A stretch of DNA of 64,000 nucleotides from Carcharhinus longimanus. Lineage: Eukaryota. The first letter of the stretch is position 1, and the number at the start of each line of letters is the position of its first letter. Positions 7,930 to 32,974 of this stretch are shown here, piece by piece. The translations under genes and the position numbers were made by a program. The notes beneath the pieces were generated by a model that was not told the origin of the DNA, did no database searches, and saw only the letters and a program-made list of their open reading frames with translations. The stretch is from NCBI GenBank assembly GCA_030264375.1, contig JASCQW010000162.1, positions 27,709,647 to 27,773,646 on the forward strand, in the 5' to 3' direction.

Positions 7930-8010
7930 CTGTCTGGGAAATCGATCTTTTTACATAGCTGGTGGTGCTGTGACGCTTGCTTGCAATCATGAAGGGATCC
8001 GGAAGTGATT
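7930..8010 (-). CDS. MCF2L2: Symmetric phase-1 cassette exon (ESLPDPFMIASKRHSTTSYVKRSISQT), 81 nt
   Basis: Acceptor ttcaacttcttcttacag and donor CAG/gtaaag. Open frame, length a multiple of 3. Confidence 0.7.
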
Positions 8011-10216
8011 CTGTAAGAAGAAGTTGAATATTTTTAGTAGCATAAAGCTAACATTTATCAAGGATTGCTGCAGAGAAAATAAGAATGATGAATAAACTTC
8101 AGCTTTGGCACAAAGAAGCTCATCCTTACAAAATAAATTCTTCATGTTAAAAATGCTAATTAATGTCACCTTGATAAACAAATGGATTTTTGTTAATTTA
8201 TTTAAATATTTTACACTTCACCTGGTCCATTATTTTGTAGTTGATAATTTCAACGTTGGAAGAAAAAAACAACAAAAGTTTCAAAAACTGGTTACCAATC
8301 TTATTGTATAAAAGAGAAATGGTAGTTTATTTCTCAAGGCTCCTTTACTGACAATAGCCCAAGTTGTTCATCAGTCATGGCTTATTGCAATTCAGGACAC
8401 CACTGTTGTTCAGAAATTAATAATTACACCTCATAATATTTGGTAAGTGAAATATGTTTAAAATTGTCACCAGATGTCATAAAGGATCAGTGGCTGCGGT
8501 GACTTTTAAACTTAAAGCTTGTTTGTATTTCTGGTTGATCTACTAGTCACTCAATCATTGTCGTACAATTAAAATGACTGGAATTTATAAACTGGTTTTG
8601 GATGTATTTTGTCTGATGTAGGGGAATTAGTTCAAGGGAGCTCATGAAATGCAATTCATTGACACAGTAGAGGTACTAAAGTACAAAATTTCTATAGAGA
8701 GATATTGAGAAAAGGAAGGACAAATCAATAGGCTCCTGCAAACGTTAGGAAAATATCTTTTAAAAATGCACACAGTATAGCGGCAGAAGTTAAGATTATA
8801 TTTGGCACTGTGATTAACTGTCCTTTCTGATATTGACAGAAAATGCATGTTGCATAGTACAAGTAACATTAACACTATATTAAATACAATTAAAATGCTA
8901 GTAAATAAAACATAGATGCAAAAATACATGTCTTTCTGCAAATGTTTCTAAGCATGAAAAGAACACATGGAATTTGGACTTCTGGTTCCATGACTTAGAA
9001 TACCATTGCATTGTTCCTGTAGACTTTCACTTAAAAGTAAATGAACCGAAATATCACTGATTATACTTATCACTGACCCCTCTAATTGATCATTGTGGTC
9101 ACCTTTCACTCATTTTCTTACTTGTTCAACTCATGTTTTCTGTGCATATTTTGATAAATATTTCTGGCTTCACTTTTGCATTTTATTTATTAACCTTTTC
9201 TCCCCCAACCCTCCCGCCACCTTGGATCATCAAACAAACAAGAAAGAAGCATGTTCCTGGATATTTGATGATACAACTGCTGAGGCAGCCTTTAGAATGT
9301 GAGCAAGAATGACTCAAGGTAATTAACCCACCAGATTATATTTTTGCCAGATTGCAGATAAAAATGTTCAGCACTAACCAAGGGGCTAAAAATGAACACT
9401 AAACATCTAAAGCTTACATTTAGGGCCAGATTTTTGTCTGGTGTTTTTGTTTGGCCTGCAAACAGCAACATCCTTTTTTTACAGGGCAATTGGATTGTCA
9501 CACATGGATCAGGTGTGCAGCTTGTAGAACAAAAAACAGTACAGCACATGAACAGACCCTTCGGCCCTCAAAGCCTGTGCCGATCACGTTATAAGCATGA
9601 AAGCATGTAGGTCAGGTTTCCCTGAGCCCCTTAAGAAGATTCTGCCCCGATTTTAAAAAAGACATGCAAAAATGTGATGATTCCATTTTTATTTTCTGGA
9701 AAGGTTCTTCCCCCAGTTTAACTGCTGTTGCGGCGCTTACTCCTTCAGCTCCTGTGGGTGAACAGTGAAGTTCAAACTGGCTGCAGTTATCAGTCATGCA
9801 GCTCCGAGGTTACTCAACAGGACATGCACAGAAATTCCCACTTGAACTTTGACTGCAAGAACAGTATGCAGAATGCAGAATGGACAGAAAGTGGATTGGA
9901 CTCCAATGTTTTCCTGCAAAAACTTCTGAATTCAGTTCAACTTTTCAATTCCATGATGCATTATAAATGAGAGACAATAAACGGTCTAACTATTTTGTCT
10001 GAAACAATATCACAAATGTCAAAAGCAGTCACAAACACCTGACACACAGTCACAAACAGCTAAAGCACAATTACAGCCACAATACAGTCAACTCCCACTA
10101 CATGGTTATGGAACACAATGAAATGAAGAACTTCTCCTGAAATGAGAACAAATAAGCACTTTTGTTTAGCAAAGTACATCGCAGCATGCACTTCCCCACA
10201 TCAAATGCAGCTGTAC

Positions 10217-10291
10217 CTTCAAACCCCAGTGGAGTTGGGTCACTCTTTATTTCATATCTCTTAGCTTTAACATCTGGCCCAGAGAGTGATC
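10217..10291 (-). CDS. MCF2L2: Symmetric phase-1 cassette exon (GSLSGPDVKAKRYEIKSDPTPLGFE), 75 nt
   Basis: Acceptor tttcatgcctctgcaacag and donor AAG/gtacag. Matches the MCF2L segment SPDKKAKRHEVKSDPTPFG (recalled). Confidence 0.88.
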
Positions 10292-11502
10292 CTGTTGCAG
10301 AGGCATGAAAACATATCAAGAACAGCTCCATAATTCATTACTTTATTATTTATACCTTACAACAAATAAACTAGCACAGGTTCAGTTAATACAAGTAGCA
10401 GTATTGTCTGATATATAACCTGGGACTAAGAAAGATCATTGAATAAAATCCATTGAGCTTAATGTTTAATCCTTAGAGACATTTTAGCTAAAGCACTGAT
10501 TAGTGGTAAAACGCTTCTTGTTAATAAAGAGCTGAAAAAGCAAATGCGATCCTCATTAACAGAAGCATACAATTTGATATAAACAAGAATTCTCTTTTGA
10601 GTTCATGCATTGCTCTAGCCTGTACCATCAATGAACTGTTACTGCTTAAAAGAGACATCATCGTAAAGAAAAGGTATCCCATCTGAAAAAAAAAATTAAT
10701 TCTGAAAACCCTCACTGACGAAAATCTTTTCTTCTTATTTTGCATTTCCAATTTTTGTTTTTTAATATTTATTTCTGCTACTGCTTTTCCTAATTGATGC
10801 CGAATGCACGCAAACCAAATGAGTTGCAAACCTATGACACAGTTTCTGATGCTATGTAGGTTGGGAAATCTGTTCTGTAGAAAAGCTGGCACAAAGCGGG
10901 TGGATGCCACTTGCATCGAGAGATGAAGGCCTGAAGCTCATTGGAAAATGGACTTTGGGCAACGTCTACATAATGCTAGTGAGTTGCAGTGTTAGTCCAC
11001 AGTGGGGACTTGGAGGGATTTGGGAGATAATTGGGAAATAGGTGATCAGAGGCCAGAGCAACACTCCTGCTCATTTTAGCTCACCAGGAAGGGAAGTTTT
11101 TAAAAAATTAAATGACCTATTCTGGTGGCCTTTTTGGGACTACTGTAAGTCCATAAAAATTGAACCAAATTCAGCTTCAGGATTCAAAAACAGGCAACAA
11201 GTCTCAGCTGAGTCTCTGCCTGATGTTTGTTTTAGGTGGGTGCCCTTGGATCTTGTGAAAGGGAGCAGGTGAGAGGAGTGCTGCTTGGAAATTAGTCCAC
11301 CCAACTCCTATTTTGCAGCAGAAAGAGGGAATGATGAGGCCCATTGACTGACTGGAAGAAAGTGGAAAACCAAGTGAGGGTGCTTTCACATCCTGCAGGA
11401 CCCCCCCTCTCCCCTCACCTTCCACACTGGTCAAGCAAGCTTACTGGCAGATCAATCCTTGGACAGTGCTTTGGAGATCTGAATGGACAGCATCAATGCC
11501 AT

Positions 11503-12609
11503 GGGGCAATTCTCCCAGCCTGCTGCGCTGGCTGAGATACATAAGCAGAGGCTGTTTAGTGGGCTCCCCACTGGGCGCCATGTCCTCCACATGTCTCTGG
11601 CCACCAGATTTCTGGCATCGTCAGCTCCGTGCCGGAAAATAGTGTAAAGCTGATTTAAAACACTTAAATTAAAGTTTTAATCCTGTTAACAGGATTTAAT
11701 CCCATTATAAGGACTGAAACATCTGGGCCTTCTAGCCGCTCCCCTCTCACCAGGATTGTTTCATTCCAGCCATGGAGGCCCACCAGGAGATTGGGGGTAA
11801 GGTGTGGTTGGTCCCTGGGCATTGTCAGCTTGGCAGTGCCAACCTGGTCCCCTGGCACTGCCCACAGGACAAAATGGCACTTTGGCGCTGCCCACCAGGC
11901 TTTGGGCAGTGCCAAGGGAGTGGGGTCTATTTGGGGCACGGCCTATGTGGAGGGACATCAATGGGAGCAGGGGGAGTCCCACTGCCACTCTGTATTTTGG
12001 ATCATAGGCAGAAGGAGGCTGGACAGTGATCGGGACTGGCCATCGGGGGAGGGGGGCAGGGGTCTCAGCCTGCCAGGGATGTCAGGACTGTGTGTGGGGG
12101 AGGGGCTGTTCAGGGCGGCATGTATCGGGGGGGGGGACAGAATTGGGAGATTAGAACTACAGAGGGGGAGATATCGAGGCAGCCGAGGAGGGTGGAGGGG
12201 GTGGTTTTTGGGGCGGGCTGGGAGACGTCTGGAAGGCCCGTGATCGGGACATTAGGAGGATCGGAAGGGCAGTGTTGCGGGGTCATGGGAATGGCCAGCA
12301 ATCAGCAATTGGGAGGCTGGCAGTGCGGAGCCACTGGGTATGCGCTGGTCACAGTGCTGACAGATTGGTACATGTGCAGTGGTCTGTTCAATGCTATACT
12401 GCCGGCCTCTCCAGCGGAAATGGGCCTCAGCCACAGATTTTTATCGTAATTCACGCCGAGGCACTCTGCAGTGCATAGAATGTGGCAGATTCATTTTGAA
12501 AGTCCCGCTAAAAAAAAGTGGTATTTATTTCAGTTTTTACGCAAATTCAGCACTTAGAATTTTTTTGGAAGAATCTTTTTGGGAGAAGTTTTTTGGGAAA
12601 ATCCAGGCG
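11503..12609. mobile_element. About 1.1-kb non-autonomous Harbinger-like element, inverted relative to 907-2139
   Basis: Termini ggggcaattctccc and gggaaaatccaggcg, flanked by CAT on both sides (possible 3-bp TSD). G-rich interior. Confidence 0.6.
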
Positions 12610-13179
12610 CATGAGTTTAGCAGAAAAAAACAATTTGTCTGTATTCATAGAATAGGAATCAAATCCATGATATCAACTGATGACACATGAACCCAACTGT
12701 AGATGGCACATGTGAGTGAGGGTTTAATCTTTCAGTCTCTTGATCACTGTTCTGGTTCTGGCTGAATCTAAGCATGTTAAGCATGTCATTAATATTTAAA
12801 GCAGCCACAACCCCTTCCCGGGCATGAGGTTGATTTCATTGACAGAACAGGGGCTGAAAGATCACAAGAGGCACAAAATTGGGTTCATGCCCGATATCTT
12901 ACTTCTTGCAATCTTTCCAGCCCCATGCATTATAAATTACTATGACTTAGCTCGCTGAGAAAATGGGTGAGAAAATCTCCTGATTTTTCACCTCTTGCCC
13001 TATCTCATTGGCTTGCTACACCGATCGACTGGCACGGAGCATGGTAAAATCCCGTTAACTCTGCCTGATTGCATTCTGATTTTCGAAATGCCCTGCTACT
13101 ATCTCCTTAATACTTTTTCTTGTATGATTGTGTATTTTTTTTTAAGAAATATTCATAAGTGCTGGACAAGAACCATCTC

Positions 13180-13660
13180 CATGAAGAGAGGATCTAACCA
13201 TCTCCCCTTGACATTCAATGGCATTACTATCACTGAAGGCTGGGAACTTTGAGAAGAGTAACTTGCCTCCTGGCTCCCCAAGGTCTGTCCACTATCTACA
13301 AGACAAAAATCAGGCATGTGATGGAATATTCTTCACCTGCCTGGGTGACTGTAGCTCCAACAACACATAAGAAGCTCAACACCATCGAGGGAAAAATAAC
13401 CCACTTGATTGACATCCCATCCACCAGTGATTCACAGTGGTAACAACACACACATTTACAAGATCCAAAGGTCCTTCAACACCACCTTCCAAACTCATGA
13501 CCTAGAAGGGGAAGGGCAGCAAATTTATGGGGCACTCATCACCTTCAAATTTCCCTCCAAGCCACACCATTCTGACATGGACCTGATGGATTCAGCAGTT
13601 CAAGTAGGTGATATATCACCTCCTTCTCAAGGACAAATAGGAATGGACAATAAATGCTAG
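13180..13660 (+). mobile_element. CR1/L2-clade LINE 3' fragment
   Basis: LSTIYKTKIRHVMEYSSPAW RT C-terminal relic; tail gacaataaatgctagcc. Confidence 0.7.
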
Positions 13661-13664
13661 CCTA

Positions 13665-13990
13665 GGCGGTGGCACAGTGGTTAACACTGCTGCCTCACAG
13701 CATCAGGGACCCGGGTTCAATTCCACCCTCCGGTCACTGTCTGTGTGGAGTTTGCATCTTCTCTCCATATCTGCGTGGGTTTCCTCTGGGTACTCCGGTT
13801 TTATCCCACAGTCCAAAGATGTGCAAGTTAGGTTGATTGGCCATGCTAAATTGCCCCAATGTCAGGGGGATTATCAGGGTAAATGAGGGTTATGGGAATA
13901 GGGCCTGGGTGTGATTGTGATCAGTACAGACTTGATGGGTGAATGGCCTCCTTCTGTGCTGTAGGGATTTGATGGTTCTATTCTATGATC
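13665..13990 (+). mobile_element. HE1/V-SINE-like SINE with CR1-type tail
   Basis: ggtggcacagtggttaacactgctgcctcacagc head; tail gaatggcctccttctgtgctgtagggattt. Confidence 0.85.
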
Positions 13991-14425
13991 CTAACCTGAG
14001 AGGTCTCCATTCCCATGAATTAAAAAAGCTCTTCCCTTTTGCCCCTATCATTCTTATGATGCTTTTTTATGTCTTCCACTATGAAGGCAGATAAAAAGTA
14101 CTTGTTCAAAACGTTAGCCATTTCCTTTTTTCCCACGATTAATTCCCTAGTCTCAGCCTCTAAGAGACTAATGCTCACTTTAGCTACATTTTTCCTTTAA
14201 ATATTTGTAGAAGCTTTTACTGTCTGTTTATGTTTCTTGCTAGCTTCCTCTCATTCTCCAATTTCTCCCTTCTCTTTTATTTTGTCACCCCTTGTGGGTT
14301 TTTAACATTTTCTCAATATTCTGGCTTACCACTAATATTTGTGGCATTGCAAATCTTTTTCAATTTGATACAATCCTTAACTTCCTTACTTACCCACGTA
14401 TTATGCCTTATAGAATCCCAGTAAA

Positions 14426-14502
14426 AAGTCTGACAACACCAGGTTTTAGTCCAACCTATTTATATTAAATAGGTTGGACTAAAACCTGGTGTTGTCAGAC
14501 TT
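14426..14502. repeat. Perfect 37-bp inverted repeat with a 3-nt loop, made from Penelope-derived arms
   Basis: aagtctgacaacaccaggttttagtccaacctattta-tat-taaataggttggactaaaacctggtgttgtcagactt; abuts an N gap. Confidence 0.85.
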
Positions 14503-15279
14503 NNNNNNNNNNNNNNNNNNTATCTTCCCATTGCACTTTAGCCATCTGTCTCCATACCCGAGTTATTGCATTTATTTAAGTTCAAGACACTCATTTCAGA
14601 TCTAACTTTCTCATCCTCGAACTGAATGTGAAATATTATTACGTTATGATTGCTCTAATCTAGAAGATCTTTTACTCCGAAGTATTTATTAATTCTGTCT
14701 CATTATACATTACCAGGACTAAAGTAGCCTGTTTCCTGGTTGATTCCAGAAGTATTGTACTAAGGAACTGTCCCAGATACACTCTATGAACTCATCCTCT
14801 ATGCTTCAGATTTGAAGTTCCATAGGTGAAGTTTGTACCAAGTTAGCTGATCTAAGCCAAATGTAAAGTTGGGTGCTGCAATTAGTTTCATAGGAGAGTG
14901 AAAAATTAGCTGACAATCTTAGTTCAGGTTCGCACAGAAGAATGGCTACTTGGGGTTAGGTACCAGAAGGCTGCTAGTTTCTATGGAAATGTACATGAGC
15001 AAAAATCAGTACTTTTATGATAGCAGATAAAAGAAGGGGGAGAAAAACAGGACAGTGCAAGTAAATTTTAAATGACTGCAGAGTGCAAGTTAATTATTAA
15101 TGCAACCTGACCCAAACTGGATTAATTCCAAATGAGCTCCAGAATAAGCTGATTAATGCTATGTTACTAAACATTTTGATTTCTTCCTTTTCTCCCAAAC
15201 TTACCCCTATATTGTGATATATGTATACCTAATTTCAGTTCATGTAGACAAAACTTGCAGCAATTTTTGTGTAGCACTG

Positions 15280-15715
15280 GAAAATAGGAGAGGTTGGATG
15301 AACTCAGTTTATTCTCACTGGAATTATAGAGATTGAAGGGTGGCCTGATAGAGTTTTCCAAGATTATGAGTGGCATGGGCAGAATAGATGGTTAGATGCT
15401 CTTTCCTAGGGTAGAAAAGTCAAGTGCTAAGGGACATAGGTTTAAGGTGCACGGGGAAGAGTTTAGAGGAGATGTTCGAGGCACGTTTTTTGTACAGAGA
15501 GTGGTGAATGTCTGGAATGTGCTGTCCAGGGAGGTCATGGGTGCAGGTATGATGGCAGCATGTAAGGGGCAACTAGACAAGTACAAGAAGAGGATGGGAA
15601 TGGAAGGATACAGATTCCGTAAGTGCACATGATTTTAGTTTAGGCAGGCATCATGATTGGCGCAGGCTTGGAGGGTCCAAGGGTCTTTTCCTATACCCCT
15701 ACTTTTCTTTGTTCT
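15280..15715 (+). mobile_element. CR1 LINE 3' end
   Basis: LFPRVEKSSAKGHRFKVHGEEFRGDVRGTFFVQRVVNVWN. Confidence 0.85.
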
Positions 15716-16208
15716 GTATAATTTATTACAGGTTTGTTCCTTGACTGTCTTCAAATCTACACTTTTTTTTCTCTTTCACATGTATCATAGTGCGCTTCGC
15801 TCCAATTTGTAGAATTGTTACAACACAGAAGGAAGGAAGCTATTTGACCAGTCTGCGGTGACTAGTATTCTGGGCCGTGGACCAGGGTAGTATAACTGAC
15901 AGCATTTTTCTGTCACCAACAAATGAGAAGTGAGACTCAGTTGGAACGGAGTGCATGGTAACGATTTTCCTTACAACGCAGTTATCTTCTGATTATCTGC
16001 TGCTCGCCCACCATCCCCAGTTAACAAACAGCGACATTGCCAATTGGGCTAGAATGGCAGAAACTACAATATGATCCTCCAGCTTATGGTCTGCTCAAGG
16101 GGATATCTAACTAGTTATAAATGGATTTATTAAGGCAGTTTTTTCCCATGTGAATATGATTGTAAATCAAAAGCAAAGGAGCTTTGAAGTTTTCTTCTGT
16201 GATATAGC

Positions 16209-16452
16209 AAGAAGTCTCAAAACACCAGGTTAAAGTTCAACAGGTTTACATGGAATCACGAGCTTTTGGAGCACTGCTCCTTCATCTGGTGAGTGGCTAA
16301 TTCATGATGAAGGAGTGCTACTCCTTCATCACCCACCTGAGGAAGAAGCAGTGCTCCAAAAGCTCATGATTCCAAATAAACCTGTTGGATTTAAACCTGG
16401 TGTTGTGAGATTTCTTACAGTGCCCACCCCAGTCCAATGCCGGCATCCCCAC
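16209..16452. mobile_element. Penelope-derived palindromic element with decayed hammerhead-like cores
   Basis: Arms of about 85 bp (16209-16292 and 16333-16416) and an internal hairpin at 16305-16331. Confidence 0.75.
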
Positions 16453-16561
16453 TTTTATGATATACGCAGGGCTTTGGAAATGCAACAGCCCGTGTTATAG
16501 TCAGATTTAGTCAAAACTGGGAATGGAGCAGAATGGAACGGTAATTATAATGTATGTTTAC

Positions 16562-16630
16562 CTCGTGAAGCACTGACAGAGGAAGCTAAGGAAATGCGGC
16601 GAATTACAGTTGGCTCCTTAGACTGTGATT
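16562..16630 (-). CDS. MCF2L2: Symmetric phase-1 cassette exon (ESQSKEPTVIRRISLASSVSASR), 69 nt
   Basis: Acceptor ttgattttctgtattctcag and donor GAG/gtaaac. Open frame, length a multiple of 3, in repeat-free sequence. Confidence 0.7.
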
Positions 16631-17549
16631 CTGAGAATACAGAAAATCAATGCATGTGAAGGTTAGAAAAAAGATCATTAAGAGCAAGCAGGAAAGTAAT
16701 GGCAAACACTGGGCAGATACTGTACATAAAAGCAGAATGCTCTGCCTGCACTTCTTTCTACAATTGATTTACAAAATACATTCTTTTCTTCAAAACATTT
16801 GTTAAATTTTCTCCAGCATATACTTTTATTTTTAAACCTGTATTTTATGGCTTTTTCCTTCTACCACTTGAAACCTACTTCATGCAAGACACAAATGAGT
16901 GTGTTCTTCATTATTTTGCTTTGGCGGAAGTGAATTCAGTTGAACTGTATTTACACAGCAAAATAATGAGTAGTATTGGAAATGCTGTTTGCAAACTTTG
17001 GACACTCCACATCAACTACACTGAATGGTTGGAAATATTTTCCATTAAATAAAGGAAACAAAAGATGGAGATATTAAATACGATAGCACGCAATAAGTAG
17101 AAAACACACAACAGAGAGTGATAGAATAAATTGTTCTCCAATCCACATTTTTTTTTATGGTATGAATGAAGATAATGAAATCATTATGTTTGTCATGTAA
17201 GCCTAATTGCATATATCTGTTTACATTGTAATGCATGTTAATAAAATATAATTTAAGCATCAACAAGCTGTTTCTCACTTTGCTCCAGAGATTAATGAAA
17301 GCTGCTTTTAAAACATTATTGATGATTTCAGTTCCAAATATTACCAGGATTACAAAAACACAATGGAAGATCTATCTTAAATGTTTACTGTGCAAAGTGT
17401 AAGCATTTTTTATTTTATGCAGCTGACAAAATAGCAGCTAAATACATTAGAGCTGTCGCTGTGTGGAGTTCAGGAGGAATGTGTAGCTCTTCTTGTTATA
17501 TGGGTAGGTAATAGGTAATTAGCCATAGACCACATCTCTTCTTTAGGGA

Positions 17550-17714
17550 CAGTAAAAAGTCTCACAACACCAGGTTAAAGTCCAACATGGTTTGTTCAGA
17601 ATCACAAGCTTTTGGAGTGCTGCTCCTTCATCTGGTAGTCACCTTTAACCCGGTGTTGTGAGACTTCTTACTGTGCCCACCCCAGCCCAATGCCCACATC
17701 TCCACATCATGGCT
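17550..17714. mobile_element. Penelope-derived palindromic element, internally deleted
   Basis: agtctcacaacaccaggttaaag ... ctttaacccggtgttgtgagact. Confidence 0.7.
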
Positions 17715-18071
17715 TCTTTAGAGAGACAATGAATTCTTGGTGCCTCCAGCATGTGTGTATCTGTAGGAGGTGGGATAAGGGGGGGGGGGGGAGGTAATGA
17801 GGGTTGTTGGGCACCACCTCCCCCCTACTCCCAAGTTCTGCCCCACAACATAGGGACTGTGGGGGAAGAGGGGGGCACCAAAATCAGCAGTCTGCCTGCC
17901 ATGTCTAAATGAATAATCAAGGATCAAAAAGGCTTGTTATCAAACCGATTGGTCCTGATGGTACGATGCCCATGCCATAAAACATTTGGAGCAGGCAGCC
18001 CAATGGGAGCAGGAAGCCCAGTTTTTATGGTCAAATACTTAAAGGGCAGCAAGGAAGGGTGAGGCCGTCAC

Positions 18072-18237
18072 ATAGAACATAGAACATAGAAAAACTACAG
18101 CACAAACAGGCCCTTCGGCCCACAAGTTGCGCCGATCATATCCTTACCTATCAGGCCTAGCTATAACCCTCAATCCTATTAAGTCCCATGTACTCATCCA
18201 GAAGTCTCTTAAAAGACCCTATCAAATTTGCCTCCAC
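18072..18237 (-). mobile_element. Young CR1 3' end running into a gap
   Basis: (agaacat)n tail; nearly identical to 21948-22110. Confidence 0.75.
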
Positions 18238-18535
18238 NNNNNNNNNNNNNNNNNNNNNNNNNNNNNNNNNNNNNNNNNNNNNNNNNNNNNNNNNNNNNNN
18301 NNNNNNNNNNNNNNNNNNNNNNNNNNNNNNNNNNNNNATGAAGGGACACCGGCCCCTGAGGAGTTATTTCACAATGCTTCACACTGCATTATGTTTCGGG
18401 GCTGACTAGCTGTAGTTGCCAAAGGCCGAAAGGATATCACAGTTCCATTCATATCACATTCATTTCCAGGGCCATAGCTACCACAAATGCCAGGTATCAA
18501 TGGCGGTGTCTCATGCCATCAATTCCAAATCACTG

Positions 18536-18836
18536 GGTGGCAGGGTGGCACAGTGGTTAGCACTGCTGGCTCACAGTGCCAGGGACCCAGGTTCAACTCC
18601 CAGCTTGCGGAGTCTGCTCATTCTCCCCATGTCTGCGTGGGTTTCCGTTGGGTGCTCTGGTTTCCTCCCACACTCAGGTTAGATGAACTGGCAATGCAAA
18701 ATTGCCCCTTAATGTCAGGGAGATTAGCAAGATAAATATGTGACATTACAGGATTAGGGACATGGTGGGATTGTTGTCAGTGTAGACTTGATGGGCCAAA
18801 TGGCCTCCTTCTGCACTGTAGTGATTCTATCATTCT
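18536..18836 (+). mobile_element. HE1/V-SINE-like SINE
   Basis: tRNA-like head and CR1-type tail. Confidence 0.85.
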
Positions 18837-19035
18837 AAATGCAAGCAAGGGAAACCATGAACAAAGTTAATCATTTTTCTTTCCCGTAGCACGTGTCACA
18901 TTTTTGTTTTCTTATAACCCTCTCAAGTCAATGTCTTTAGACTTGTCAAAAAATTACTTTCCTGGTTCAAAGTGGTTGATTTTCCATTTGATTCCTTCTT
19001 TCAACCTGCTTATGTCACATATCATTCACTGGTCA

Positions 19036-20409: not shown

Positions 20410-22250
20410 TAGAGTCATACAGCCTATGGAAACAGGCCCTTCGACCCAACTTGTCCATGCCATCTTTTTTTTTAAACCTCTAAGCTAGTCCCAATTGCCT
20501 GCATTTGGCCATTTTCCTCATCTCATCCATGTGATCGTCTAAACCCTTTCTAAAAGACAAAATTGTACCTGCCTCTTCGACTGCCTCTGGCAGCTTGTTC
20601 TAGACACTCATCACCCTCTATGTGAACAAATTGCTTCTCTGGATATCTGGGGGGTTTGTGGCAACATCTGAGGGAGATGTGTCACAGACTAGACACAGCC
20701 TGGCATAATAAGAAATAGGAAATAAGAAATAGGAGCAGGAGTAGGCCATCTGGCCCTTCGAGCATCATACGCACAGAATTATAGCACAATGTCCCAGGCA
20801 CCACCATCACCATTTCTGGGTGCTTCCTGTTGTTTCCCGCCCCACTGACACCCACCCCCCCACCACCTCACCCCCTCCCCTACACCTCCCCCCCCACCCC
20901 CATCCTCCTAACCCCACCACCTCCACATCAAGTCCCCAGGACAAGCCTGCCAGAGGGGGCAGCGCAGTTGTATACAGATGGGAGGGAGTGATTCTGAGTG
21001 GGCTCGACGTCGATTCTAGGCCCCATGAAGTTTCATGACATGAGGTCAAACAAGGGCAAGGATCTCCTACTGATTACCACATACTGCAAGCCACTGTTCG
21101 CCCACTCCACTCTCCCCTCCTCACTCCCTCCCCACCCCCAGCTGCTGAATCTGTACTCCTCCATATTGCACACCACTGGGAGGAAACATTGAGGGCGGAA
21201 AGGGAGCAAAATGTATTCTGGGTGGGGGGGGGGGCTTCATTAACTTCAATGACCATCATCAGGGGTTGCTTTGTAGCACCACCACAGATCAAGCTGGCCG
21301 GGTCCTAAAGATCGTAACTGCTAAACCGGAACTGTGGAAAATGGTGAGGGAAGAACATATTTAACCTCATTCTCACCAACCTGCATTTGTCCCAGACAGG
21401 ATTGCTAAGAGTGACCACCGCACAGTCCTGGTGGAGACAATACCCCGTCCTCACAGTTTATTGTTATTCATTCATGTGACGTGCATGTCGCAGGGTGGCC
21501 AGCATTTATTGCCCTTGAGAAGGTGGTGGTGAGCTGCCTTCTTGAATCGCTGCAGTCCACGTGCTATGGGTTGACCCACAATGCTGTTAGAGAGCGAATT
21601 GCAGGATTTTGACCCAGTGACTGCAAAGGAATGGTGATATGTTTCCAAGTCAAGATGGTGAGTGACTTAGAGTCATAGAGTTTACAGCATGGAGACAGGC
21701 CTTTGGCCCAACTTGTCCATGCCGCTCTTTTTCTGAAACCCCAAAGCGAATTCCAATTGCCCGCATTTGGCCCATATCCCCCTATACCCATCGTACCCCT
21801 GTAACTATGTAAATGTTTTTTAAAAGACAAAATTGTACCGCCTCTGGCAGCTTGTTCCAAACACTCTGTGTGAAAAAATTGCCCCTCTGCACACTTTTGT
21901 ATCTCTCGCCTCTCATCTTAAAACTAGTTTTAGATTCCACTACCTTTTAGAACATAGAACGTAGAAAAACTACAGCACAAACAGGCCCTTCGGCCCACAA
22001 GTTGCACCGATCATATTGCTACCTACTAGGCTCACCTGTAACCCTCAATCCTATTAAGTCCCATGTACTCATCCAGAAGTCTCTTAAAAGACCCTATCAA
22101 ATTTGCCTCCACCACCACCAATGGCAGCCGATTCCACTCACCCACCACCTTCTGAGTGAAAACTTAACTCTAACATCTCCTCTGTACCTACTCCCCAGCA
22201 TCTTAAACCTGTGTCCTCTCGTAGCAACCATTTCAGCCCTGGGAAAAAGT
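20410..22250. mobile_element. Cluster of nested LINE fragments: CR1 3' ends (minus; about 20410-20640, 21667-21945, 21948-22248), an endonuclease-region relic (plus; about 20650-21460) and a LINE tail (minus; about 21465-21665)
   Basis: CR1 tails gtcatagag/agaacatag, GGSAVVYRWEGV...DSRPHEVS APE-like relic, and ccagcatttattgccc tail. Confidence 0.65.
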
Positions 22251-24382
22251 GTCACAATTTGACAATTGCCCTTTGCTGAATGTGGGTCCCCCTGAGATTA
22301 AATTCTCCCTTCCTTCCTATCCACTCCCTCCTTAAATCCACCTGCTTCCCCCTCCCTAAGCTACCAAAACTGTTCTGACCCAAGACCGTAGACTTATCTG
22401 ATTCGGAGATCCATGGACCTTGATCTTCTTCTTCCCTCCCTCCCCTCTAGTCCTGGCAGCTTTCCTGGGGCTGGAGCTGACAGCCAATTGGATTGGATGT
22501 CAGCTCCAGATACTGAAACGTATTCCCCATTTGGCCCTCAATAATCTGCTCTGCAGCGCTCTGTGTCTGCCGGGCGGTTCAGCATGGAGCGTACCGGCTC
22601 CATGTCAATGTGGTTTCCGTTCCTACTCCCAGATTATTCAGTCCTATTTAGCTTGAGGTACATGCTGCACTCCACAAGCATGGGGCAAGGTGAGAAGACA
22701 GGCCTCTGTAAACTGGCATTGAACCCATGCTTTTGTTGTCATTCTGCATCACACTCTGTCATCTTGGCACCTCAGCTAACCAGCCCTCACTGATAATGAA
22801 TTATAAAAGATCATTAAAGGGAAAGTGAGGGTTGCAGCCGTGGCTCAACTTATTTTAACAACAGGACACATTTTGTGACTAATTCACCACACTTTACAGG
22901 TGGTACTTTGTGCCCTCTCCCTGGTATTAAACCAGCAGCAGGTGGCCCTGTCGTCATGTGGGTGGCATTACAAGCAAAGCTGTGCAGGTTACTTGTGATT
23001 CCCTGGGGTCAGCGGGACCTCATTCAAAGGCCTGATCAGGCACCCAGTTTTGGGAAGGTGCGAGCAACCCCTTTCCCTTACTGCTGACCCATTATACTTC
23101 TCCCCAGACCCCCACCACATCAAACCCCTCCTGCTGTTCTGGGGCCTGCAGTGGGTGAACTAGCTGCAGAAGCCACCATTCCTCAATGGCCTCTGATTGG
23201 CTGGCAGCTCTTGGCAAGTAGGAGTTCCCGGCCCTCGGGTCCTGATCCAGGACCAATGGCCTGTTAACTGTCTGATTTGACGGGACTTTCCCCACAGGAG
23301 GTAATCCAGGTCTCTCGCCAGCTCTTCAGCTGGTGTTGACCCCCAGAAATCTCCTCCCTATGTTCACAACCTCTATCTTAAAATCATCGTAAAGCATATT
23401 TCTCCACAGAAAAGGAAGGACAACTGAAGAATGAGTCATCAAAGAACAAACAAATAACATCCCAACACGGGAAACAGGCCCTTCGGCCCAACGAGCCTGC
23501 GCCGCCACATCTTCCTACACCTACCCCGCCCTGTGTGTATGTGAGTGGAACCCCTAATGTAGCCAGATTCAGGGGAGAATAGTGTCAATTTGGNNNNNNN
23601 NNNNNNNNNNNNNNNNNNNNNNNNNNNNNNNNNNNNNNNNNNNNNNNNNNNNNNNNNNNNNNNNNNNNNNNNNNNNNNNNNNNNNNNNNNNNNCACTCCC
23701 GGAACCTCCAAGAGCAGCCCACGCACGACCCACCGTGTGCATGCCCCTTGTTTGACAACAAGGTGGACCGACACCTGTGGAATAAAAATACGTCATCGCT
23801 TGGGAATGAGTCACCATTTGGAAAGCTTCAGCAGTTAGTACGTAGCACATGATGATAAAATCTCAGCAAGTGAGGATGTGTGACATAAGAAAGGTGGTAA
23901 AGAGAAAAAATGAAAAATATTTTAAAAAGCATTCCATTTTGTTATATCTACACAAGTCAAACAGCTGTACATTTGATTCATTGGCAAAACAGCTTGGAAC
24001 TGGGCTAACTACTTAACTCCTGGCCTGGTTCAGTTTTCAAAAATCAAGACTGCATCATTGAGTGGTGGAGGGTAAAGTGGGGGTGGCAGCTTACAGCGTT
24101 ACTGCACGGTGCCATAAGTTTCAAATCACAAAATAATCCAAAACCTACACTTTGTGCTGCCTGCTGATTTGAATGATCACAATATCTGGCCAACACCAAC
24201 TGAACTATTGTTTGCTGGATACATCAACAGGGGGCAATATCATGAGTGGCTAGCAGCACTTAAGGCCAGCTTGTATTCCTTAAAGCTCACCTGCACTGTT
24301 TGAAACTAACTGGTACCTCTTTAATGAATTGTGGCTGGAGTAGGTGCTGGAAGTCATTTGCAATTGAATTTTAAAACAAAAT

Positions 24383-24742
24383 TCATTCATGGGACATGGG
24401 TGTCCAGCATTTATTGCCCATCCCTAGTTGCCCTTGAACTGAATGACTTGTGAGGCCATTTCGGAGAGCAATTGAGAGTCAACCACATTGCTGAGCCTCT
24501 GGACTCACATGTAGACCAGGTAAGGACAGCAGATTTTCTTCTCTAAAGGACATTAGTGAACCAAATGGGTTTTTGTAAAATTTGGTAATGGTTTCATGGT
24601 CATCAGTAGATTCTTAATTTCAGATTTTTTATTGAATTCAAATTCCACTATTTGCCATGGTGGGATTTGAACCTAGGTCCCCAGAACATTAGCTGGGTTT
24701 CTGGATTAATAGTCTACCAATAATACCACTAGGCCATCACCT
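24383..24742 (-). mobile_element. SINE family B, near full length
   Basis: attcattcat tail and a B-box-like gggatttgaaccta on the opposite strand. Confidence 0.8.
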
Positions 24743-24759
24743 GACCGTGGGCATTTTGT

Positions 24760-26700
24760 ATAACAGCATAACGCTGGGGGTCTTGATAAAGAAGGTGGAA
24801 ATTAGAAGAGACATCTTGTATTTACAGGAGGCTCTTCAAACATATGTTCATAAGGCAATAATTTAGGCTCTGATGACTGAGGTGAATTGCCATAAGAACT
24901 TCAACCACCAGCAGTTGAGGTCAATAAATGCATCATTATAAATCACACCCTACCAACTGCGGCACTAACCTCATACATTGGTTAATTTACATTCCCATCA
25001 CTCACCCAACCAACATTCTCCATTAGAATTCAATCTCAGATTCATAGCTCCAATGCACCCTCATATGCATAGCAGTGCTGCAAGCCTCACGATTACACCT
25101 CATAGTGCGCACACATTGCCCAATAGTTAACTACGACAATCACATCATGCAAACAGATCACACAGCATTCACTGATCCACTTCCCTCTCCTGCAGGATAA
25201 GACAGTGCACAATTGGAGGTAGCAGGAGCTATTTGTAGCTACAATTCTGAACTATCATGAAGAAGACAATGCTGGCTACCGTTATGATTCCTGTTGTTGA
25301 GGTTGTGACCGGCAGAACGATTGAAGTTATCAAGCATGACATTACCCTCATATCTAATCATTCTTACCACATCCCATCTTCTCCGAATCCACACTCTCTT
25401 CCAAGTTACAACATGCGGCACGGTGGCACAATGGTCAGCCCTGCTGTCTCACAGCGCCAGGGATCCAGATTCGATTCCCAGCTTGGGTCACTGTATGTGC
25501 AGAGTTTACACGTTCTCCGTCTGTCTGTGTGGGTTTCCTCCGGGTGCTCCAGTTTCCTTCTGCAGTCCGAGAGATGTGCTGGTTAGGTGCATTGGCCATG
25601 CTAAATTCTCCCTCGGTGTACCCAAACAGATGCCGTAGTGTGGCAACGAGGGGATTTTCACATTGACTTCATTGCAGTGTTAACGTAAGCTTACCTGTGA
25701 TACTAATAAACTTAAAACTTAAACTTACAGATGTATCCTTCTCCTTTCGGATACTTAAGAAGTGCAACCTGGCCAGGTTGTAGAGAAACAACAAGATGTA
25801 GTAATGATGAAGGCATGTCGTCACTTAAATTTCGCACTCGCAACTTCCAGCCTAGAAACTGACATGGCACATATTTTGGAGGATGGCACAGAGGTGGGAT
25901 AGGCATGTGGTGAGATATTGGGCACAAGTGTCAGGCAGCCAGGGCAGCTAGCAGGAATAGCGCATCAGCCAGCTCTCCAAAGGAGTAAGGTCATATACAG
26001 TGTTTGCTGCAGAGGACTCAGATGAAGATTTCAATGGGGAAGCCCACAGGAGATAACTTATGGATATGCACACTGAAATGCTTGGATCATTGGGAAGCCT
26101 GCCAGAAGGTTTGTATTCATTGTCAAGAAGAATGGAGGAATCTAGCATTAATGGCGCAGGGTTTTGTACAGAACCTGGAGCTTGTCTTTCCCTGTGTGGC
26201 GGGGTGGCCAACATCCTCTGCATACTTCCAGATTCAACCATGCTGTAGTGACTGATGGCCAATGTTGGATGTCACAGTTTCCATTGCAGCACAAGCAGCA
26301 GGCACCCAGATTCTGCATTCTGCAGTGGAAGCTCAGACTGAAGTCATGCAAGCTCAGACAGCTGCTGTCATGTCCGTGAGCACAGGTGTTCAAAAGGGGC
26401 AGCTTGGCTCAGCAGTCCAGCAATCTGTCCTCCAATGGATTACCAAAACTGTTAAAGTGCTATGGAAGGGAACAGCAGTGACCCCGTCGAGCATCAGCCT
26501 GTTGTCCTCTCTCAGGAGAACAGCATTCACCTTCCCACTACTATCACTGCCAATGTCCTTGCTTCTACTTCTCAGCCAGCCAGCTCAGACTGCTGCCATC
26601 CACACTGGGATGTTGTGGATCACAGCTGGGCTGTGTAGGCCCAGGGCTGCTTCAGAACCTTCTCCACCTGTAGTGAGCAGGACGTGTAGTATAACTGGCT
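24760..26700 (+). pseudogene. Degenerate Harbinger/PIF-type Myb/SANT-like accessory gene relic
   Basis: LIKKVEIRRDILY (about 24782), a spliced segment ctcctgcag/DKTVHNWR*QEL (about 25196), and AAEDSDEDFNGEAHRR*LMDMHTEMLGSL...SLSRRMEES followed by an Ala/Gln-rich tail. Contains stops and frameshifts and is interrupted by a SINE. Confidence 0.5.
25415..25722 (+). mobile_element. HE1/V-SINE-like SINE
   Basis: gcggcacggtggcacaatggtcagc head; aataaactt tail. Confidence 0.85.
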
Positions 26701-27619
26701 TGGGGTTTCCGGTTATGTTAATAATTAAAGTTGGTTGGGGGGGGGGGAGTAACTGTGTAGCGTAGTGTATTAATTGCTTACAAAGTAGTGTTTAGTTAAT
26801 TTTGTTATAGTAAAAGTCTGTGCAGTTCCTTTAAATTGGTCACTGAGTATTCAAATCTCTTGTTCAAAGTTATCAGTCTCTAATCAGGGATCTAGTCGTG
26901 AACTAACACATGTTGCAAATATTGCCTGATCAAGTTTGAAGTGAGCCAGATGCATATAATTTCTTGGCTACAGTCACCTTTGCAGTCATGGTCAATGCTG
27001 TCTTTGCTGTACGCTGAGGCTGTGGTGGTTACAGCAGATGGCAGATTTCAGTGATGAGCTCCTCAGTGAAGTAGAAACATCGGATATACTGTACCACTGA
27101 GAATGTGGTGGAAGAAGTTTGATCTGAACCCTCAAGTGGTTATAGCCTCCGGCTGAAAGCCCTTCTTACCATCTTCCTCCTTTTCCCAGCAGCTTGTTCT
27201 GTTCTGAATCATCTGCTCATTCTCTCTGTCATGATATAGTCCAAGGGAATGCAAACTGCAGGGTGGAATATCCTTTAGTGTGTAACATTGATGTAATGCC
27301 AATGGTGCCATTTTTAAACTCAAGGCTCTAATTAATGCCCTGTGTTAATATTGCACAGCTAAACATATTTTCACTGCAATTTAATTGCTCTTTGTCCTCA
27401 ATATTTCCAAAGTTTTTTCACAATGCTTCATTACACCATTCTGCTTTACATCTCTCCCCTGGGATGCCCTTACATGGCTCCATTCCCACTGGTTTGAACG
27501 CATTTCAAGCAATTGCTTACCTTTCCTTGGTGCAATGTCACCTTTGGCACTCCATTGAGGATCTATTCTCTTCTTTATTTCCACCATTTAGCACTACTGT
27601 CAGCAAGAATCAACCTCCG

Positions 27620-29170
27620 TGTAGAATCATAGAATAGTTACAGCGTTGAAGGAGGCCACTTTAAGTCAGTGCTGGCTTTTTGCAAGAACAATTCTACTAC
27701 TGCCCACCCCCCCAGCCCCCACTCCCGTGCTTCCCCACAGCCCTGCAATTAGTTCCTTTTCAAGTTCTTATCCAACTCTCTGTTGTGAACAATTATAGAA
27801 TCTACCTCTACAACACTCGAGAAATGCATTCTAGATCTTAACTGCTCACTGCATTAAAACATTCTTACTCGAGTAATCTTGCTTGTTTTGCCAATCACCT
27901 TAAATCAGTCTCCTCTGGTTCTCGATATTCCTGCCAATGGGAACAGTATTTCTCTCTATCTGGACCCCTCATGATTTTGACCATCTATCAAATCTCATGC
28001 CAAACTTTTATTTTCACTAAAAAATAACAACTCTGGTTTCTCCAATCGATTCATGCAACTTGAGTCTCTTATCCTTGAATATCATTCTGGTAAACTTTCT
28101 CTGAATCCTCTCTTATTCCTTTATATACTTCCTAAAGTGTGGTGCCTAGGAATAGGTACAATACTCCAGTTGAGGCCAAACCAATCTTTTATAAGGATTC
28201 ATTATAAATTTCTTCCTTTCAAGCCTCAATTTAGCTGAGGATTCTGTATGTCGTTTTAACGATTTTCTCAACCTGTTTATGCCACTTTCAATGAGTTGTG
28301 CACATAAATTCCCAGGTCTCTCTGTTCCCAAACCATCTGCAGAATTGTATCCATTATTTTGGATTGCCTCCCTTGATTCTGCTGATCAAAATGTATCACT
28401 TCACTCTTCCCTGCATTAAATTTCATCAGCCACACCTCCTCCCATTCCAGCAACCCAAATATGACCTCTTCAAGTCAATCACTATTCTCATTGTTTGCAA
28501 CACTTCCAAGTTTTGTGTCATTTGCAAAGTTTGAATTTGTGCCCTACACACACCCAAGTTTGACCAGCCACCTCGCCCTCGTCCAGAGAGTGGAAAGCAA
28601 TGGCAAACCCCAGTGAAAACCTGCCAAGGAAGCAGCTCAGGATCAAGATCAGCAGACAACTGGACAATGCACACTCGAGTGAATGAACGGCACCTAAGTT
28701 AGATCATTCATATATACTATACTATTGTGTAAATTTCTAATACCAAAGCCCAGGTAAATCCATTGTAAACGTTCCCCAGTCTGGAAAAAAATCTTTCATC
28801 ACAGCTCTATGTTTCCTGTCACACAGCCAATGTTGTATGTATGCCACCACTGTCCCTTTTTATTCCATGGGCTTTAACTTTACTGACAAACCCATTATGT
28901 GGTGCTTTATCAAATGCTGATTGGATTCCCTCGCCCAGTACATCAACAGTATTATCCTAATCAATCCTCTGTTACTTCATCAAAACACTCAACAATGTCA
29001 CTTAAATACATGGTTTGGCTTATCTGTGCTGGTTTTCCTTAATTAATGCACACTTTGCCAGTTTTGTCCTGAATTTTTATTTCTGAAAGCATTCCCACCA
29101 ATGAGGTTAAACTGGCTGGCAAAAAAATCGCTGGGTTCACCTTCACACCCTTTTTTTGAACCGGAGTGTA
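27620..29170 (-). mobile_element. Old degenerate CR1 LINE fragments
   Basis: YKRLVWPQLEYC relic, gtagaatcatagaat tail and gctttatcaaatgc (KAFDK) relic. Confidence 0.6.
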
Positions 29171-29175
29171 ACATT

Positions 29176-29498
29176 GTGAGGCCTTGATAGAGTGGACATG
29201 GAGAGGACGTTTCCACTAGTAGGGAAGACTAGAACTAGAACTAGGAGGTACTATCTCAGGCTGAAGGGACGATCTTTTAAAGCAGAGACGAGGAGGAATT
29301 TCTTCAGCCAGAGAGTGGTGAATCTGTGGAACTCTTTGCTGCAGAAGGCTGTGGAGGCCNNNNNNNNNNNNNNNNNNNNNNNNNNNNNNNNNNNNNNNNN
29401 NNNNNNNNTGGGGATGAGAAAAATATCAGCCATGATTGAATGGCAGAGCAGACTCGATGGGCTGAGTGGCCTAATTCTGCTCCTAAGTCTTATGGTCT
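29176..29498 (+). mobile_element. Young CR1 3' end spanning a gap
   Basis: RLKGRSFKAETRRNFFSQRVVNLWNSL. Confidence 0.85.
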
Positions 29499-30908
29499 TA
29501 TTGCCATTCTCCAGTCCTCTGGCACCCACTTCTGTATTTAAGGAGAATTTGAAGAATATAGCCACGGAATTGATGGCAGGGAAGATGGCAGATGGGCCTT
29601 CTGTCCAGAGGCCAAATGAGTCATAGTCAGTTAATGATTACTTCCTATTGTCCTATTGCTGTTTGTCTCTCAGTTGATTCCCATTTGAGCCACTAACAGA
29701 GGGCGGGAGGTGCCCATGCCAATTGCACTGCCCGCCCTCACCAAGCACCAACTAGCACCATTCCTCCCACCTCACCGGGTCCTGCTGTCTGACTGGCCCA
29801 GATGCCACACACTTGGTGGAAAGGCTTGCTGTCCTTCTCTGGTGTTCTGTTCTTTCAGGTGCAGCCCCAGCAGCAGCCAGTATCACTGCTGATTGGCCAA
29901 TCCTGTGATTGATTGGCAGCTCCCGAGGGCAACCAAACATCTGAGTGTAAGTGTGAAATGAAGCCCATGTCACCTCCTGACAGTGAGACACCAGAATAAA
30001 GTTCAACTCTGAATTAAAAACTGTAAAAACATCAGTCTCGTCTTATTGATTGGATCAATCCTTTCAGAAGAAATTAGATTATTGTTTGAATAAAATTACC
30101 CTTCATTTGGTTTTCTATCTTCGACTGAGAGTTCACACAGATTCATTGGCATTTATACGCACTTGCCCGGGTTTTACTGGCACTTCTAGCTTGTACCGAA
30201 CTTGTGAGGTTCAGTTGTGGTTTTTTTTCTGTTTCTAAACTAGTCCAACACAAACTAATTGCTTGGCTCACATTTTAAATGTGGTTAAAGTCAATAGTTA
30301 CAACAAGCAACTGGTTTGGTTTCGGGACATTGACAAATTCCAAAATGTTCTCTTCCCTTAATTAGTACCATTTACGAATACAATTTTAATAAAACCCATC
30401 AAATTTTCAAGAATAAGTAACACCACCCAAAGGAAAGTTATTCGGACTTTTTAAAATATATTTTGACATCATGTGATGACATGTAAATAGTTAAAAAAAA
30501 TACTGTTTATTACTTGAAATTGTTCACTGCTAGTTTAAGTAAGAGCGTTCACAAATGGTTTAAAACATAACCTTGTCTAGCCCTTAATGGATTTGTCACA
30601 CTTTGCCGTCACCTCCAAAGCACTTTCTGATTCTCATCTGCAAATTACATTCAGTTCTGGAAAATCACATTACTGAAAAAAAAAGTAGAGTTCACATATC
30701 TGGAAAAGTCAAAATGGCTGCCATTATTTGCAGAACAGAGAGGTCATAAAAGCCACACATCATGAAAATGGTCTGCAAAATGGATAATGTTTGACTATTC
30801 TTCAGGGCAGTGCTTTAAGGGCAGTACTCTCATTTCTACACTGGCCCTGAAGTATTTCTCCAGCTCAAAGCTCTTGAAGGGGTTCCTGCTGTTAAGAGGG
30901 AACCTCAG

Positions 30909-31123
30909 TCAAGGAGAAAATGCTGGGGGCTGCTGTTGTTCCAGAAAATCTGCCTTCCAACTTAAGGGGCAGGAGTGTTCAAAGATTGGAATGAGGCCAA
31001 GACCAACATTTTCAGTTGCTGTCTCTTGGATTGTAAGAGGAAATACAGATTGTTTTGAGGCCATCTTTATCCTTTGGATATTTACTGCCACTTCTTGGAG
31101 TTTGTCCCTAATTTCCATATGGC
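30909..31123 (-). CDS. Candidate alternative terminal exon (GHMEIRDKLQEVAVNIQRIKMASKQ...QQQPPAFSP*)
   Basis: Pyrimidine-rich acceptor ctttctgccacacttactttcactccctaag. Phase-1 entry is in frame with ORF 30909..31118. AATAAA lies on the minus strand at 30506-30511. No homology support. Confidence 0.4.
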
Positions 31124-31444
31124 CTTAGGGAGTGAAAGTAAGTGTGGCAGAAAGCATGAAATCTACCGTGACCCCAGACCTTCCCAACCTCTGCCTTCAC
31201 CACCATACAGCATATCAGGAAAGGAATGAGCAATGGCAGCCTTGGTGGGATTGTTGGCAGGAGGAATACCACTTGTCTGCTGAGCCCTTACAAATCCCAT
31301 TTTCCACTGTTTTATACTGTGATCCCTACTGATGTTGAAGAATCCCTCCATAAAGAAGCATGACCCAGAAGGTGGTCATTCAGCCCATTGTGTCAGTGCT
31401 GCCAAAAATGAATTACCCAACCTAATTCCGATTTCAAGCTCTTG

Positions 31445-31806
31445 CCATTGACTCTGTCTACACTTCCCGCTGCCTCGGCAAAGCAGCCAGCATAATTAGA
31501 GACCCCCACACATCCTGGATATTCTCTCTTCCACCTTCTTCCGTTGGCAAAAAGGTACAAAAGTCTGAGGTCACATACCAACCGACTCAAGAACAGCTTC
31601 TTCCCTGCTGCTGTCAGACTTTTAAATGGACTTTCCTTGTATTAAGTTGATCTTCCTCTACACCCTAGTTCTGACTTTAACACTACGTTCTGCACTCTGT
31701 TGTTTCCTTCTCTATGAATGGTATGCTTTGTCTGTATCGTGTTCAGCAAACCCTATTTTTCACAGTGTGTTAATACATGTGAATAATAAATCAAATCAAA
31801 TCAAAT
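31445..31806 (+). mobile_element. Rex1/Babar-like LINE 3' end
   Basis: Same family as 3597 and 19113; (tcaaa)n tail. Confidence 0.8.
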
Positions 31807-31859
31807 CTTGCTCTATAATCCTGTAGGTCTTGGCATTTAAATGCATATCAAACCATATT

Positions 31860-32470
31860 TTAGTCAGGGATTTAATACTGAGCCCCATGGAATTCCACTG
31901 GAAACAGCCTTCCAGCTTAAATACACCTGTTACCCTTCGCTTTCTGTCTCTCCGATAATTTTGGATCCAATTTGGTACTTTCTGTAGGATCCCATGGACT
32001 TTTACTTTCCTGACCAGTCTGTCATTTGGGACCTTGTCAAAATCCTAGCTAAAATCCACAAAGACTACATCAAATACACTAAGTCATCAATCTGCCTTAT
32101 TGCTTCCTAAAAAAACCCAAAAATATCAATTAACTTAGACAAATCTGACCTTCCCTTATAACAAATTCATGATGGTTGAGCTTGAATAATCTGTGACTTT
32201 CCAATAATAATTCATATTGTCCCTCAGTATTTTTTCCAATAATTTGCTCCCCACCCAAGTTTGACTGACTGGCCTGTACTCAGTCGATCTAGTCCTTCCT
32301 CCATTTATAATCAATGTTACAAATGTTGGCATCTTCCTATCCTCTTGCACCATACCTGTAATTCTAGAGGACTGGAAAATAATTGTTAGAGTCTCTGCTA
32401 TTTCCTCCTTTGCACCTCTTGGTCTGGAATGTATCTTATCAAAGCTTGACATGTTTATCAACTTAGGCAA
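31860..32470 (-). mobile_element. CR1 RT fragment
   Basis: EEIAETLTIIFQSS...YRPVSQTWVGSKLLEKILRD. Confidence 0.75.
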
Positions 32471-32878
32471 AATAGTTTTCTCATGACTTTACAGATAAGA
32501 CATCCCTGCAAAGTTTATTTCACCAATTTTAATGTGAAAAAGTATGAAATACCATGAGTTGTATGTTTCACAAACTTAAAGCTAATTGTCTATCTTTTAG
32601 GATTTGTGATTCAATGACAGCAATATTCACATTTGTGAGCATTATGAGATTTTACTAAATGACTGACGGAAGGAATACAATGAAAGTCAGATGACAAAAT
32701 TAGGCCACACAACTTATACAGAAAACATAAGGAAATATACCTGACAGATTACACATGGGTAAAGTATGTAATAGTGTGTGATAGTTGTATGGAAAAGTGA
32801 TAGTTGTTTGGAAAAGTGAAGAGCCATGCGGTATAGGACGGACACTGAAGTTACACCAGTTCCACTTAGTTGTTTTAC

Positions 32879-32974
32879 CTTTCTGCTGTGGTCTGCGATT
32901 GGAAAGACCCTGCAATGTAAATCGCTTTTTAGCAAGAGATGAACGATCAAGGTTATGACTGGAAGGGACATCAG
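32879..32974 (-). CDS. MCF2L2: Symmetric phase-1 cassette exon (ADVPSSHNLDRSSLAKKRFTLQGLSNRRPQQK), 96 nt
   Basis: Strong pyrimidine tract (tcttcctcttcctctttcctag) and donor AAG/gtaaaa. Resembles the MCF2L segment SRKRFTLQGFANLKGQK (recalled). Confidence 0.88.

Follow-up and report, generated by a model that had tools for sequence, protein, structure and literature searches.

The window analysed here, a 64,000-nucleotide (nt) stretch of the Carcharhinus longimanus genome (contig JASCQW010000162.1, here C162, positions 27,709,647 to 27,773,646), carries on its minus strand part of MCF2L2, a RhoGEF gene of the Dbl family (MCF2/MCF2L/MCF2L2 group). Four short exons of this gene form a cassette cluster that is real, conserved, of a common kind and already in public annotation. 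Exon A (32879-32974, 96 nt) encodes a KKRFTL motif, exon B (16562-16630, 69 nt) RRISL, exon C (10217-10291, 75 nt) KAKRYEIKSDPTP, and exon D (7930-8010, 81 nt) ends in RSxSQ. All lie on the minus strand in open phase 1-1 frames between AG acceptors and GT donors. The lengths, phases and splice sites listed by the initial annotation are confirmed, the 75-nt exon being 10217-10291, and the exon peptides it gives are found unchanged in the window. Genome searches with A and C return a single copy of each, in the window, and are a weak test for short distant copies.

The exons had been placed directly after the PH domain and taken to build a C-terminal tail. Both statements need correction. Linker exons U0 (49946-50012, minus strand, 67 nt, phase 1-2) and U (46076-46188, minus strand, 113 nt, phase 2-1), the latter the upstream partner of the array, come between the PH domain and A, and an acidic exon, two SH3 exons and the last exon follow D, 2.2-8.4 kb outside the window start. 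The array therefore encodes a PH-SH3 linker rather than a C-terminus. Its introns are long, with 13.1 kb from U to A, 16.2 kb from A to B, 6.3 kb from B to C, 2.2 kb from C to D and 10.1 kb from D to the next exon. A run of symmetric exons is by itself no sign of optional use, because five phase 0-0 exons also follow one another in the DH-PH core of this gene.

Public gene models of other cartilaginous fish point to skipping of three of the four exons. Sixty-five models were assigned by species, one N-terminal fragment being dropped and five further rows left unused. The remaining 64 show the patterns ABCD (34), BCD (15), BD (5), ABD (4), D (4) and CD (2), with A missing in 26, C in 13 and B in 6. 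Exon D is present in 64/64 and is optional in teleost and amphibian models. Every model with A also has B (38/38; Fisher p 0.003, on rows that are non-independent), and the same skips repeat across catsharks, carpet sharks, rays and chimaera. We conclude that A, B and C are very probably used alternatively in sharks and that D is likely constant, and we infer from these models that skipping of A, B and C gives about six forms. The proposal of up to 16 tails stands in that every subset keeps the frame; it fails in that only six of the 16 patterns appear in cartilaginous fish, always with D. Pooling all fish matches raised the count to 11/16 patterns in 89 of 120 proteins (the other 31 lacked the anchor or the next exon, and motif calls misread a few poor models). 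The fully included form is the commonest among MCF2L2 models (46/89), and teleost MCF2L2 annotation also includes a form with all four skipped.

Four sequencing runs were compared over 7800-11000, a span covering C and D. In run X1 a contig joins 8010 to 10217 with GT..AG ends, the expected C-D splice. A loose contig end at D continues into sequence of the next exon, a D-to-next-exon splice. Splice joints were thus seen at exon 7930-8010, with the qualification that X1 is guessed to be RNA and comes from another species. The three other runs gave no C-D joint over the same span, and depth in X1 was higher over D than over C, although contig depth cannot rank exons. That the reads show inclusion joints only is what would be expected if all four exons were near-constitutive in sharks and the model skips were low-level splicing noise, tolerated since the frame is kept. 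The predominance of ABCD, the presence of D in every model and the constitutive five-exon symmetric run of the same gene agree with that explanation. Noise accounts poorly, however, for identical skips recurring in several orders, for the absence of A from 26/64 cartilaginous-fish models, or for a fully skipped form that teleost MCF2L2 models include and that is the most frequent one in the paralogue MCF2L (52/106), and we regard near-constitutive use of all four as improbable.

Conservation of the array extends well beyond sharks. Exons A-D match other cartilaginous-fish proteins at 71-100% identity and in the correct order in the shark and ray rows shown. Identity to ten references ranging from catshark to marsupial was 61-100% for A, 45-95% for B, 62-100% for C and, weakest, 19-96% for D; the constant linker exon U reached 27-81% with the same references, so that A and C are the better conserved. 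Exon A is 100% identical in catshark and skate and 61-77% identical in bony vertebrates. Exons B and D, which the initial annotation did not recognise, are coding and conserved across species. All four have counterparts in sharks, rays, chimaera, paddlefish and teleosts, and among amniotes in birds, crocodilians, turtles, squamates, platypus and marsupials. Profile calls on 120 tetrapod proteins gave BCD in 63, ABCD in 49, BC in 5 and ABC in 3, from a query that favoured B and C and a threshold that missed at least one D. Four amphibian models are without A and D.

Since all four exons are found in bony fish and amniotes, the suggested cartilaginous-fish expansion is contradicted. A freely combinatorial 16-tail system expanded in that group has in its favour that any subset keeps the frame and that 11/16 patterns appear when all fish are pooled. 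Against it stand the six patterns of sharks, where D is never skipped and A is never without B, the wider distribution of the array, and its apparent loss from MCF2L of galeomorph sharks (below). We consider such a system very improbable.

No placental was among the 120 tetrapod matches. A rabbit MCF2L2 model (P0251) has a strongly diverged DH-PH region and is a short model that ends soon after PH, without a cassette motif. Together these raise, as a lead only, the idea that placental MCF2L2 may have lost the array. Some bird MCF2L2 models have about 14 extra residues before A, or a C six residues shorter, and one lizard model has nine additional residues between B and C (P0451, P0455, P0446, P0448), which could be additional splice choices of this linker in particular lineages.

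Comparison with the paralogues separates A and C from B and D. In the corresponding place MCF2L of birds, turtle, opossum, teleosts and chimaera can carry as many as four optional segments, in 9/16 patterns among 106 of 119 proteins. Alignment of MCF2L2 and MCF2L profiles with hhalign returned 98.3% probability for A and its counterpart A', 98.7% for C and C' and 92.9% for the next exon; B-B' and D-D' gave 0.13% and 0.11%. Exons A and C are thus homologous to optional exons of MCF2L, in agreement with the earlier remark that two of the four resemble MCF2L/DBS segments. B and D are not detectably so, in a test limited by short low-complexity segments; the B and D slots either diverged past recognition or arose separately in each paralogue. 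A hagfish protein, whose tree position is not settled, matches C (28 bits) and weakly A (9.9 bits), in order. Because A and C are shared with MCF2L and matched in hagfish, they predate the MCF2L/MCF2L2 duplication, and the ancient origin initially proposed is upheld for them. Three invertebrate-type tails that were profiled and a motif scan of 148 representatives yielded no A or C match among invertebrate relatives. Birth of A-D by tandem duplication was considered and is unsupported, the best within-gene pair, A-B, reaching 1.8% hhalign probability.

Sharing of the array among paralogues, as initially supposed, is true of A and C with MCF2L; it was not found for B, for D or for MCF2, and it fails for MCF2L of this shark. 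The matching intron of its MCF2L (C105:68751643-68754856, gap-free, 3.2 kb) holds no cassette trace, and galeomorph MCF2L proteins from seven species are without cassettes in 18/18 cases. Chimaera MCF2L keeps three. In this sample of galeomorphs and chimaera, the whole array was apparently lost from galeomorph-shark MCF2L. For MCF2, no cassettes were found in three MCF2 proteins or in 100 kb of contig C190, which is about 20% N and in which later tail exons were unfound. Mice are described as lacking MCF2L2 (PMC5499878), and A' and C' are retained in MCF2L models of placentals, naked mole-rat among them. It is conceivable, although we hold the idea only tentatively, that A and C constitute a regulatory module under splicing control that arose before the MCF2L/MCF2L2 duplication and that vertebrates have to retain in one paralogue, B and D having been gained separately in the same slots. 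Galeomorph sharks would then keep A and C only in MCF2L2, and mice could keep them only in MCF2L.

The linker itself is predicted to be disordered. In an AlphaFold model of the sawfish ABCD form (58-row alignment), residues 843-1040, which hold all four exons, have a predicted local distance difference test score below 50 and are unstructured, flanked by folded PH and folded SH3 domains. The linker is rich in basic residues (K+R 19%, D+E 10%) and adjoins the acidic exon, and its length in sharks varies by pattern from 27 to 107 residues. Each exon contributes one short basic Ser/Thr motif, KKRFTL in A, RRISL in B, KAKRYEIKSDPTP in C and RSISQ in shark D. Motif retention among exon holders was 139/139, 225/225, 230/231 and 232/232, figures that are partly circular as the holder test partly overlaps the motif. 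We take these motifs to be like the target sites of PKA and other basophilic kinases. Teleost D presumably resembles a 14-3-3 site, the proline of such a site being missing in shark and amniote D.

Taken together, we think it likely that these are old, conserved, frame-keeping exons of the MCF2L2 linker, of which A-C are probably optional and D probably constant in sharks, and which encode predicted phosphorylation or docking sites. Each exon would supply one basic motif read by basophilic kinases or binding partners. Splicing would leave the catalytic core untouched and set both the number of motifs and the length of the linker between PH and SH3, and exon inclusion could in this way alter how the GEF is regulated or placed. 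Motif-based regulation is, by a little better than an even chance, the reason for conservation of the exons. Alternatively, the optional exons could act mainly as spacers or basic patches that adjust PH-SH3 distance or positive charge for membrane binding, with no specific phospho-sites or partners. A linker predicted to be disordered and basic beside an acidic exon would suit that role, as would the strong sequence divergence of D and of the B and D slots of MCF2L. Yet the short motifs of A and C have been preserved in both paralogues and in hagfish amid drifting flanks, which a pure spacer would not require. We therefore judge the spacer explanation rather unlikely.

Inclusion of the exons is probably favoured in nervous tissue. 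Downstream of exon C, at distances of 27, 389 and 417 nt (9795-10190, minus strand), lie three TGCATG hexamers, the sequence of the RBFOX element. With 26 copies on the whole strand about 0.2 is expected per 500 nt, and the chance for one flank, calculated by hand, is about 0.001. The cluster near C is a hint of neural control. Published work adds two further hints: an Mcf2l splicing event, not placed within the gene, depends on NOVA2 and PTBP2 in mouse brain (10.1101/244905), and Mcf2l is reported to act in synapse formation (PMC3681934).

Several considerations weigh against the interpretation of A-D as optional, motif-bearing exons of MCF2L2. The RNA evidence includes no skipping junction for C or D across 7800-11000, X1 is of presumed rather than documented type and from a different species, and contigs give no levels. 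The evidence for skipping of A, B and C comes from automatic annotation (RefSeq X forms, Ensembl), in which some models are poor and distant events need not be phased. Tree support for the MCF2L2 assignment is moderate. The third TGCATG is altered in a relative, and the cluster was picked out from a view of 22 flanks and seven motifs. An RT-PCR insert of about 90 bp reported in 2005 for the human DBS intron discussed below did not match the predicted exons (PMC1185642), and no data on the phosphorylation, binding or tissue distribution of A-D turned up in the literature searched.

Assignment of the gene to MCF2L2 comes from the tree and from synteny. In a DH-PH tree of 38 rows the shark sequence falls in a clade with MCF2L2-named rows (support 89/88, unstarred), apart from the MCF2L and MCF2 clades, and the genome holds three paralogues of the group, the other two on contigs C105 (MCF2L type) and C190 (MCF2 type). 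An intact 374-amino-acid single-exon Galactosyl_T open reading frame (ORF), B3GNT5-like and named to family level, lies antisense in an upstream intron (C162:27823678-27824802, plus strand). A LAMP-family gene, likewise named to family level, lies 17-22 kb past the last exon (C162:27678800-27684225, minus strand). A nested B3GNT5-type gene with a LAMP3-type neighbour is, we presume, the arrangement at human MCF2L2. These neighbours and the tree placement together led us to call the gene MCF2L2. B3GNT5 expression has been tied to MCF2L2 intron variants (PMC7062907). LAMP-family matches were also seen on the contigs of both paralogues, the one on C105 at 0.55 Mb from MCF2L.

Upstream of the linker, the window covers DH exons at 62003-62095 and 60212-60304 (93 nt each) and 55201-55326 (126 nt), PH exons at 54568-54789 (222 nt) and 52424-52516 (93 nt), all phase 0-0, and the last PH exon at 50606-50684 (79 nt, phase 0-1), all on the minus strand. 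Exon 54568-54789 matched solved Dbs DH-PH structures at E 3e-33, and from this similarity RhoA/Cdc42 exchange activity would be predicted. The same exon is 92-99% identical to cartilaginous-fish proteins named DBS; its teleost matches carry the name MCF2L2, as do the tetrapod proteins matched by the array. Across the DH-PH region identity to a Mustelus asterias model is 99.6%, which marks the window as likely carcharhiniform, the sole difference in 235 residues being a Glu for Ala in exon 54568-54789 (KDLERF here, KDLARF in Mustelus, catshark and Dbs), either a species change or an assembly error. The catshark orthologue has the domains CRAL_TRIO_2, Spectrin, RhoGEF, PH and SH3, a Sec14-spectrin-DH-PH architecture, and its exons map across the shark locus.

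Some variation in the array is of smaller scale. RefSeq and Ensembl models of MCF2L2 orthologues repeat the four exons and their order, and skipped versions are annotated among them. Differences are that skipping of D is absent in cartilaginous fish, that some birds have the extra segment before A, and that exon B has two codons fewer here and in two catsharks than in non-carcharhiniform sharks and rays. The first intron bases after B (16556-16562, minus strand) read like the missing two codons, which suggests a frame-keeping 6-nt donor shift of B in carcharhiniform sharks, a simpler explanation than a microexon. A fifth microexon of 6 nt between B and C was rejected, there being no convincing AG/GT micro-exon there and the two extra residues that most sharks and rays carry after B travelling with B in all models; membership of A-D in the neural microexon class (3-27 nt) is ruled out by their lengths of 69-96 nt. 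Between C and D, 9103-9108 (minus strand) has the form AG-6 nt-GT with a purine-rich acceptor and would account for a two-residue insert of the Mustelus model, which is likely an annotation artefact. The window has 14 N runs (1,895 bases), two of them in the region of the introns flanking A and a third between B and C, where a small extra exon may sit. A short, very high-copy repeat occupies 9525-9590, between C and D, with a summed contig depth of thousands to tens of thousands in 4/4 sequencing runs. An Rfam scan of the window gave 0 matches, and six long intronic ORFs gave no Pfam match.

Optional exons in disordered linkers are common, and conserved, frame-preserving cassette exons coding disordered, motif-bearing segments of signalling proteins form a general class. 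The shark array shares with this class symmetric phases, small exon size, predicted disorder, short basic motifs and possible RBFOX-type elements. It differs in that four such exons stand in tandem and two of them can be followed through a vertebrate gene duplication and back to hagfish. Dscam-type arrays, which consist of duplicated or mutually exclusive exons, similarly multiply isoforms by several short tandem exons. An array of that type was rejected here, as all A-D pairs have hhalign probabilities of at most 1.8%, ABCD occur together in 34/64 models and C is joined to D. The closest counterpart is the linker of MCF2L/DBS/Ost, alike in domain order (Sec14-spectrin-DH-PH-SH3; PMC7156542), position, four optional segments and homologous A and C. 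It differs in that its B- and D-slot segments are not detectably similar to those of MCF2L2, the fully skipped form prevails in its models (52/106, versus the fully included form in 46/89 for MCF2L2) and galeomorph MCF2L is without the exons. For a human DBS intron, Ohler et al. (2005) list two exon predictions conserved between human and mouse, already in VEGA, and report two RT-PCR bands from brain (PMC1185642, Dataset S1). Their primers translate into the exons flanking the array and mark the matching intron. Reviews cover Dbs domains and N-terminal isoforms (PMC7156542, PMC6952795, PMC8210018, PMC10885033). The literature searched contained no study on the function or history of the linker exons; older Ost/Dbs isoform papers may describe C-terminal variants.

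The new points are modest: an A/C module as deep as hagfish, unrelated B and D slots, seemingly constant use of D in cartilaginous fish set beside its optional use in bony vertebrates, and apparent loss of the array from galeomorph MCF2L. That loss would be the opposite of the mouse MCF2L2 loss (PMC5499878). Two motifs held for more than 450 million years in both paralogues, with no function described in the literature searched, point to an unstudied control layer of DBS-type GEFs. If A and C are indeed a module that must be kept in one paralogue, an alternative-splicing module would have been reciprocally partitioned once the genome had duplicated, and sharks and mice would be natural single-copy test cases.

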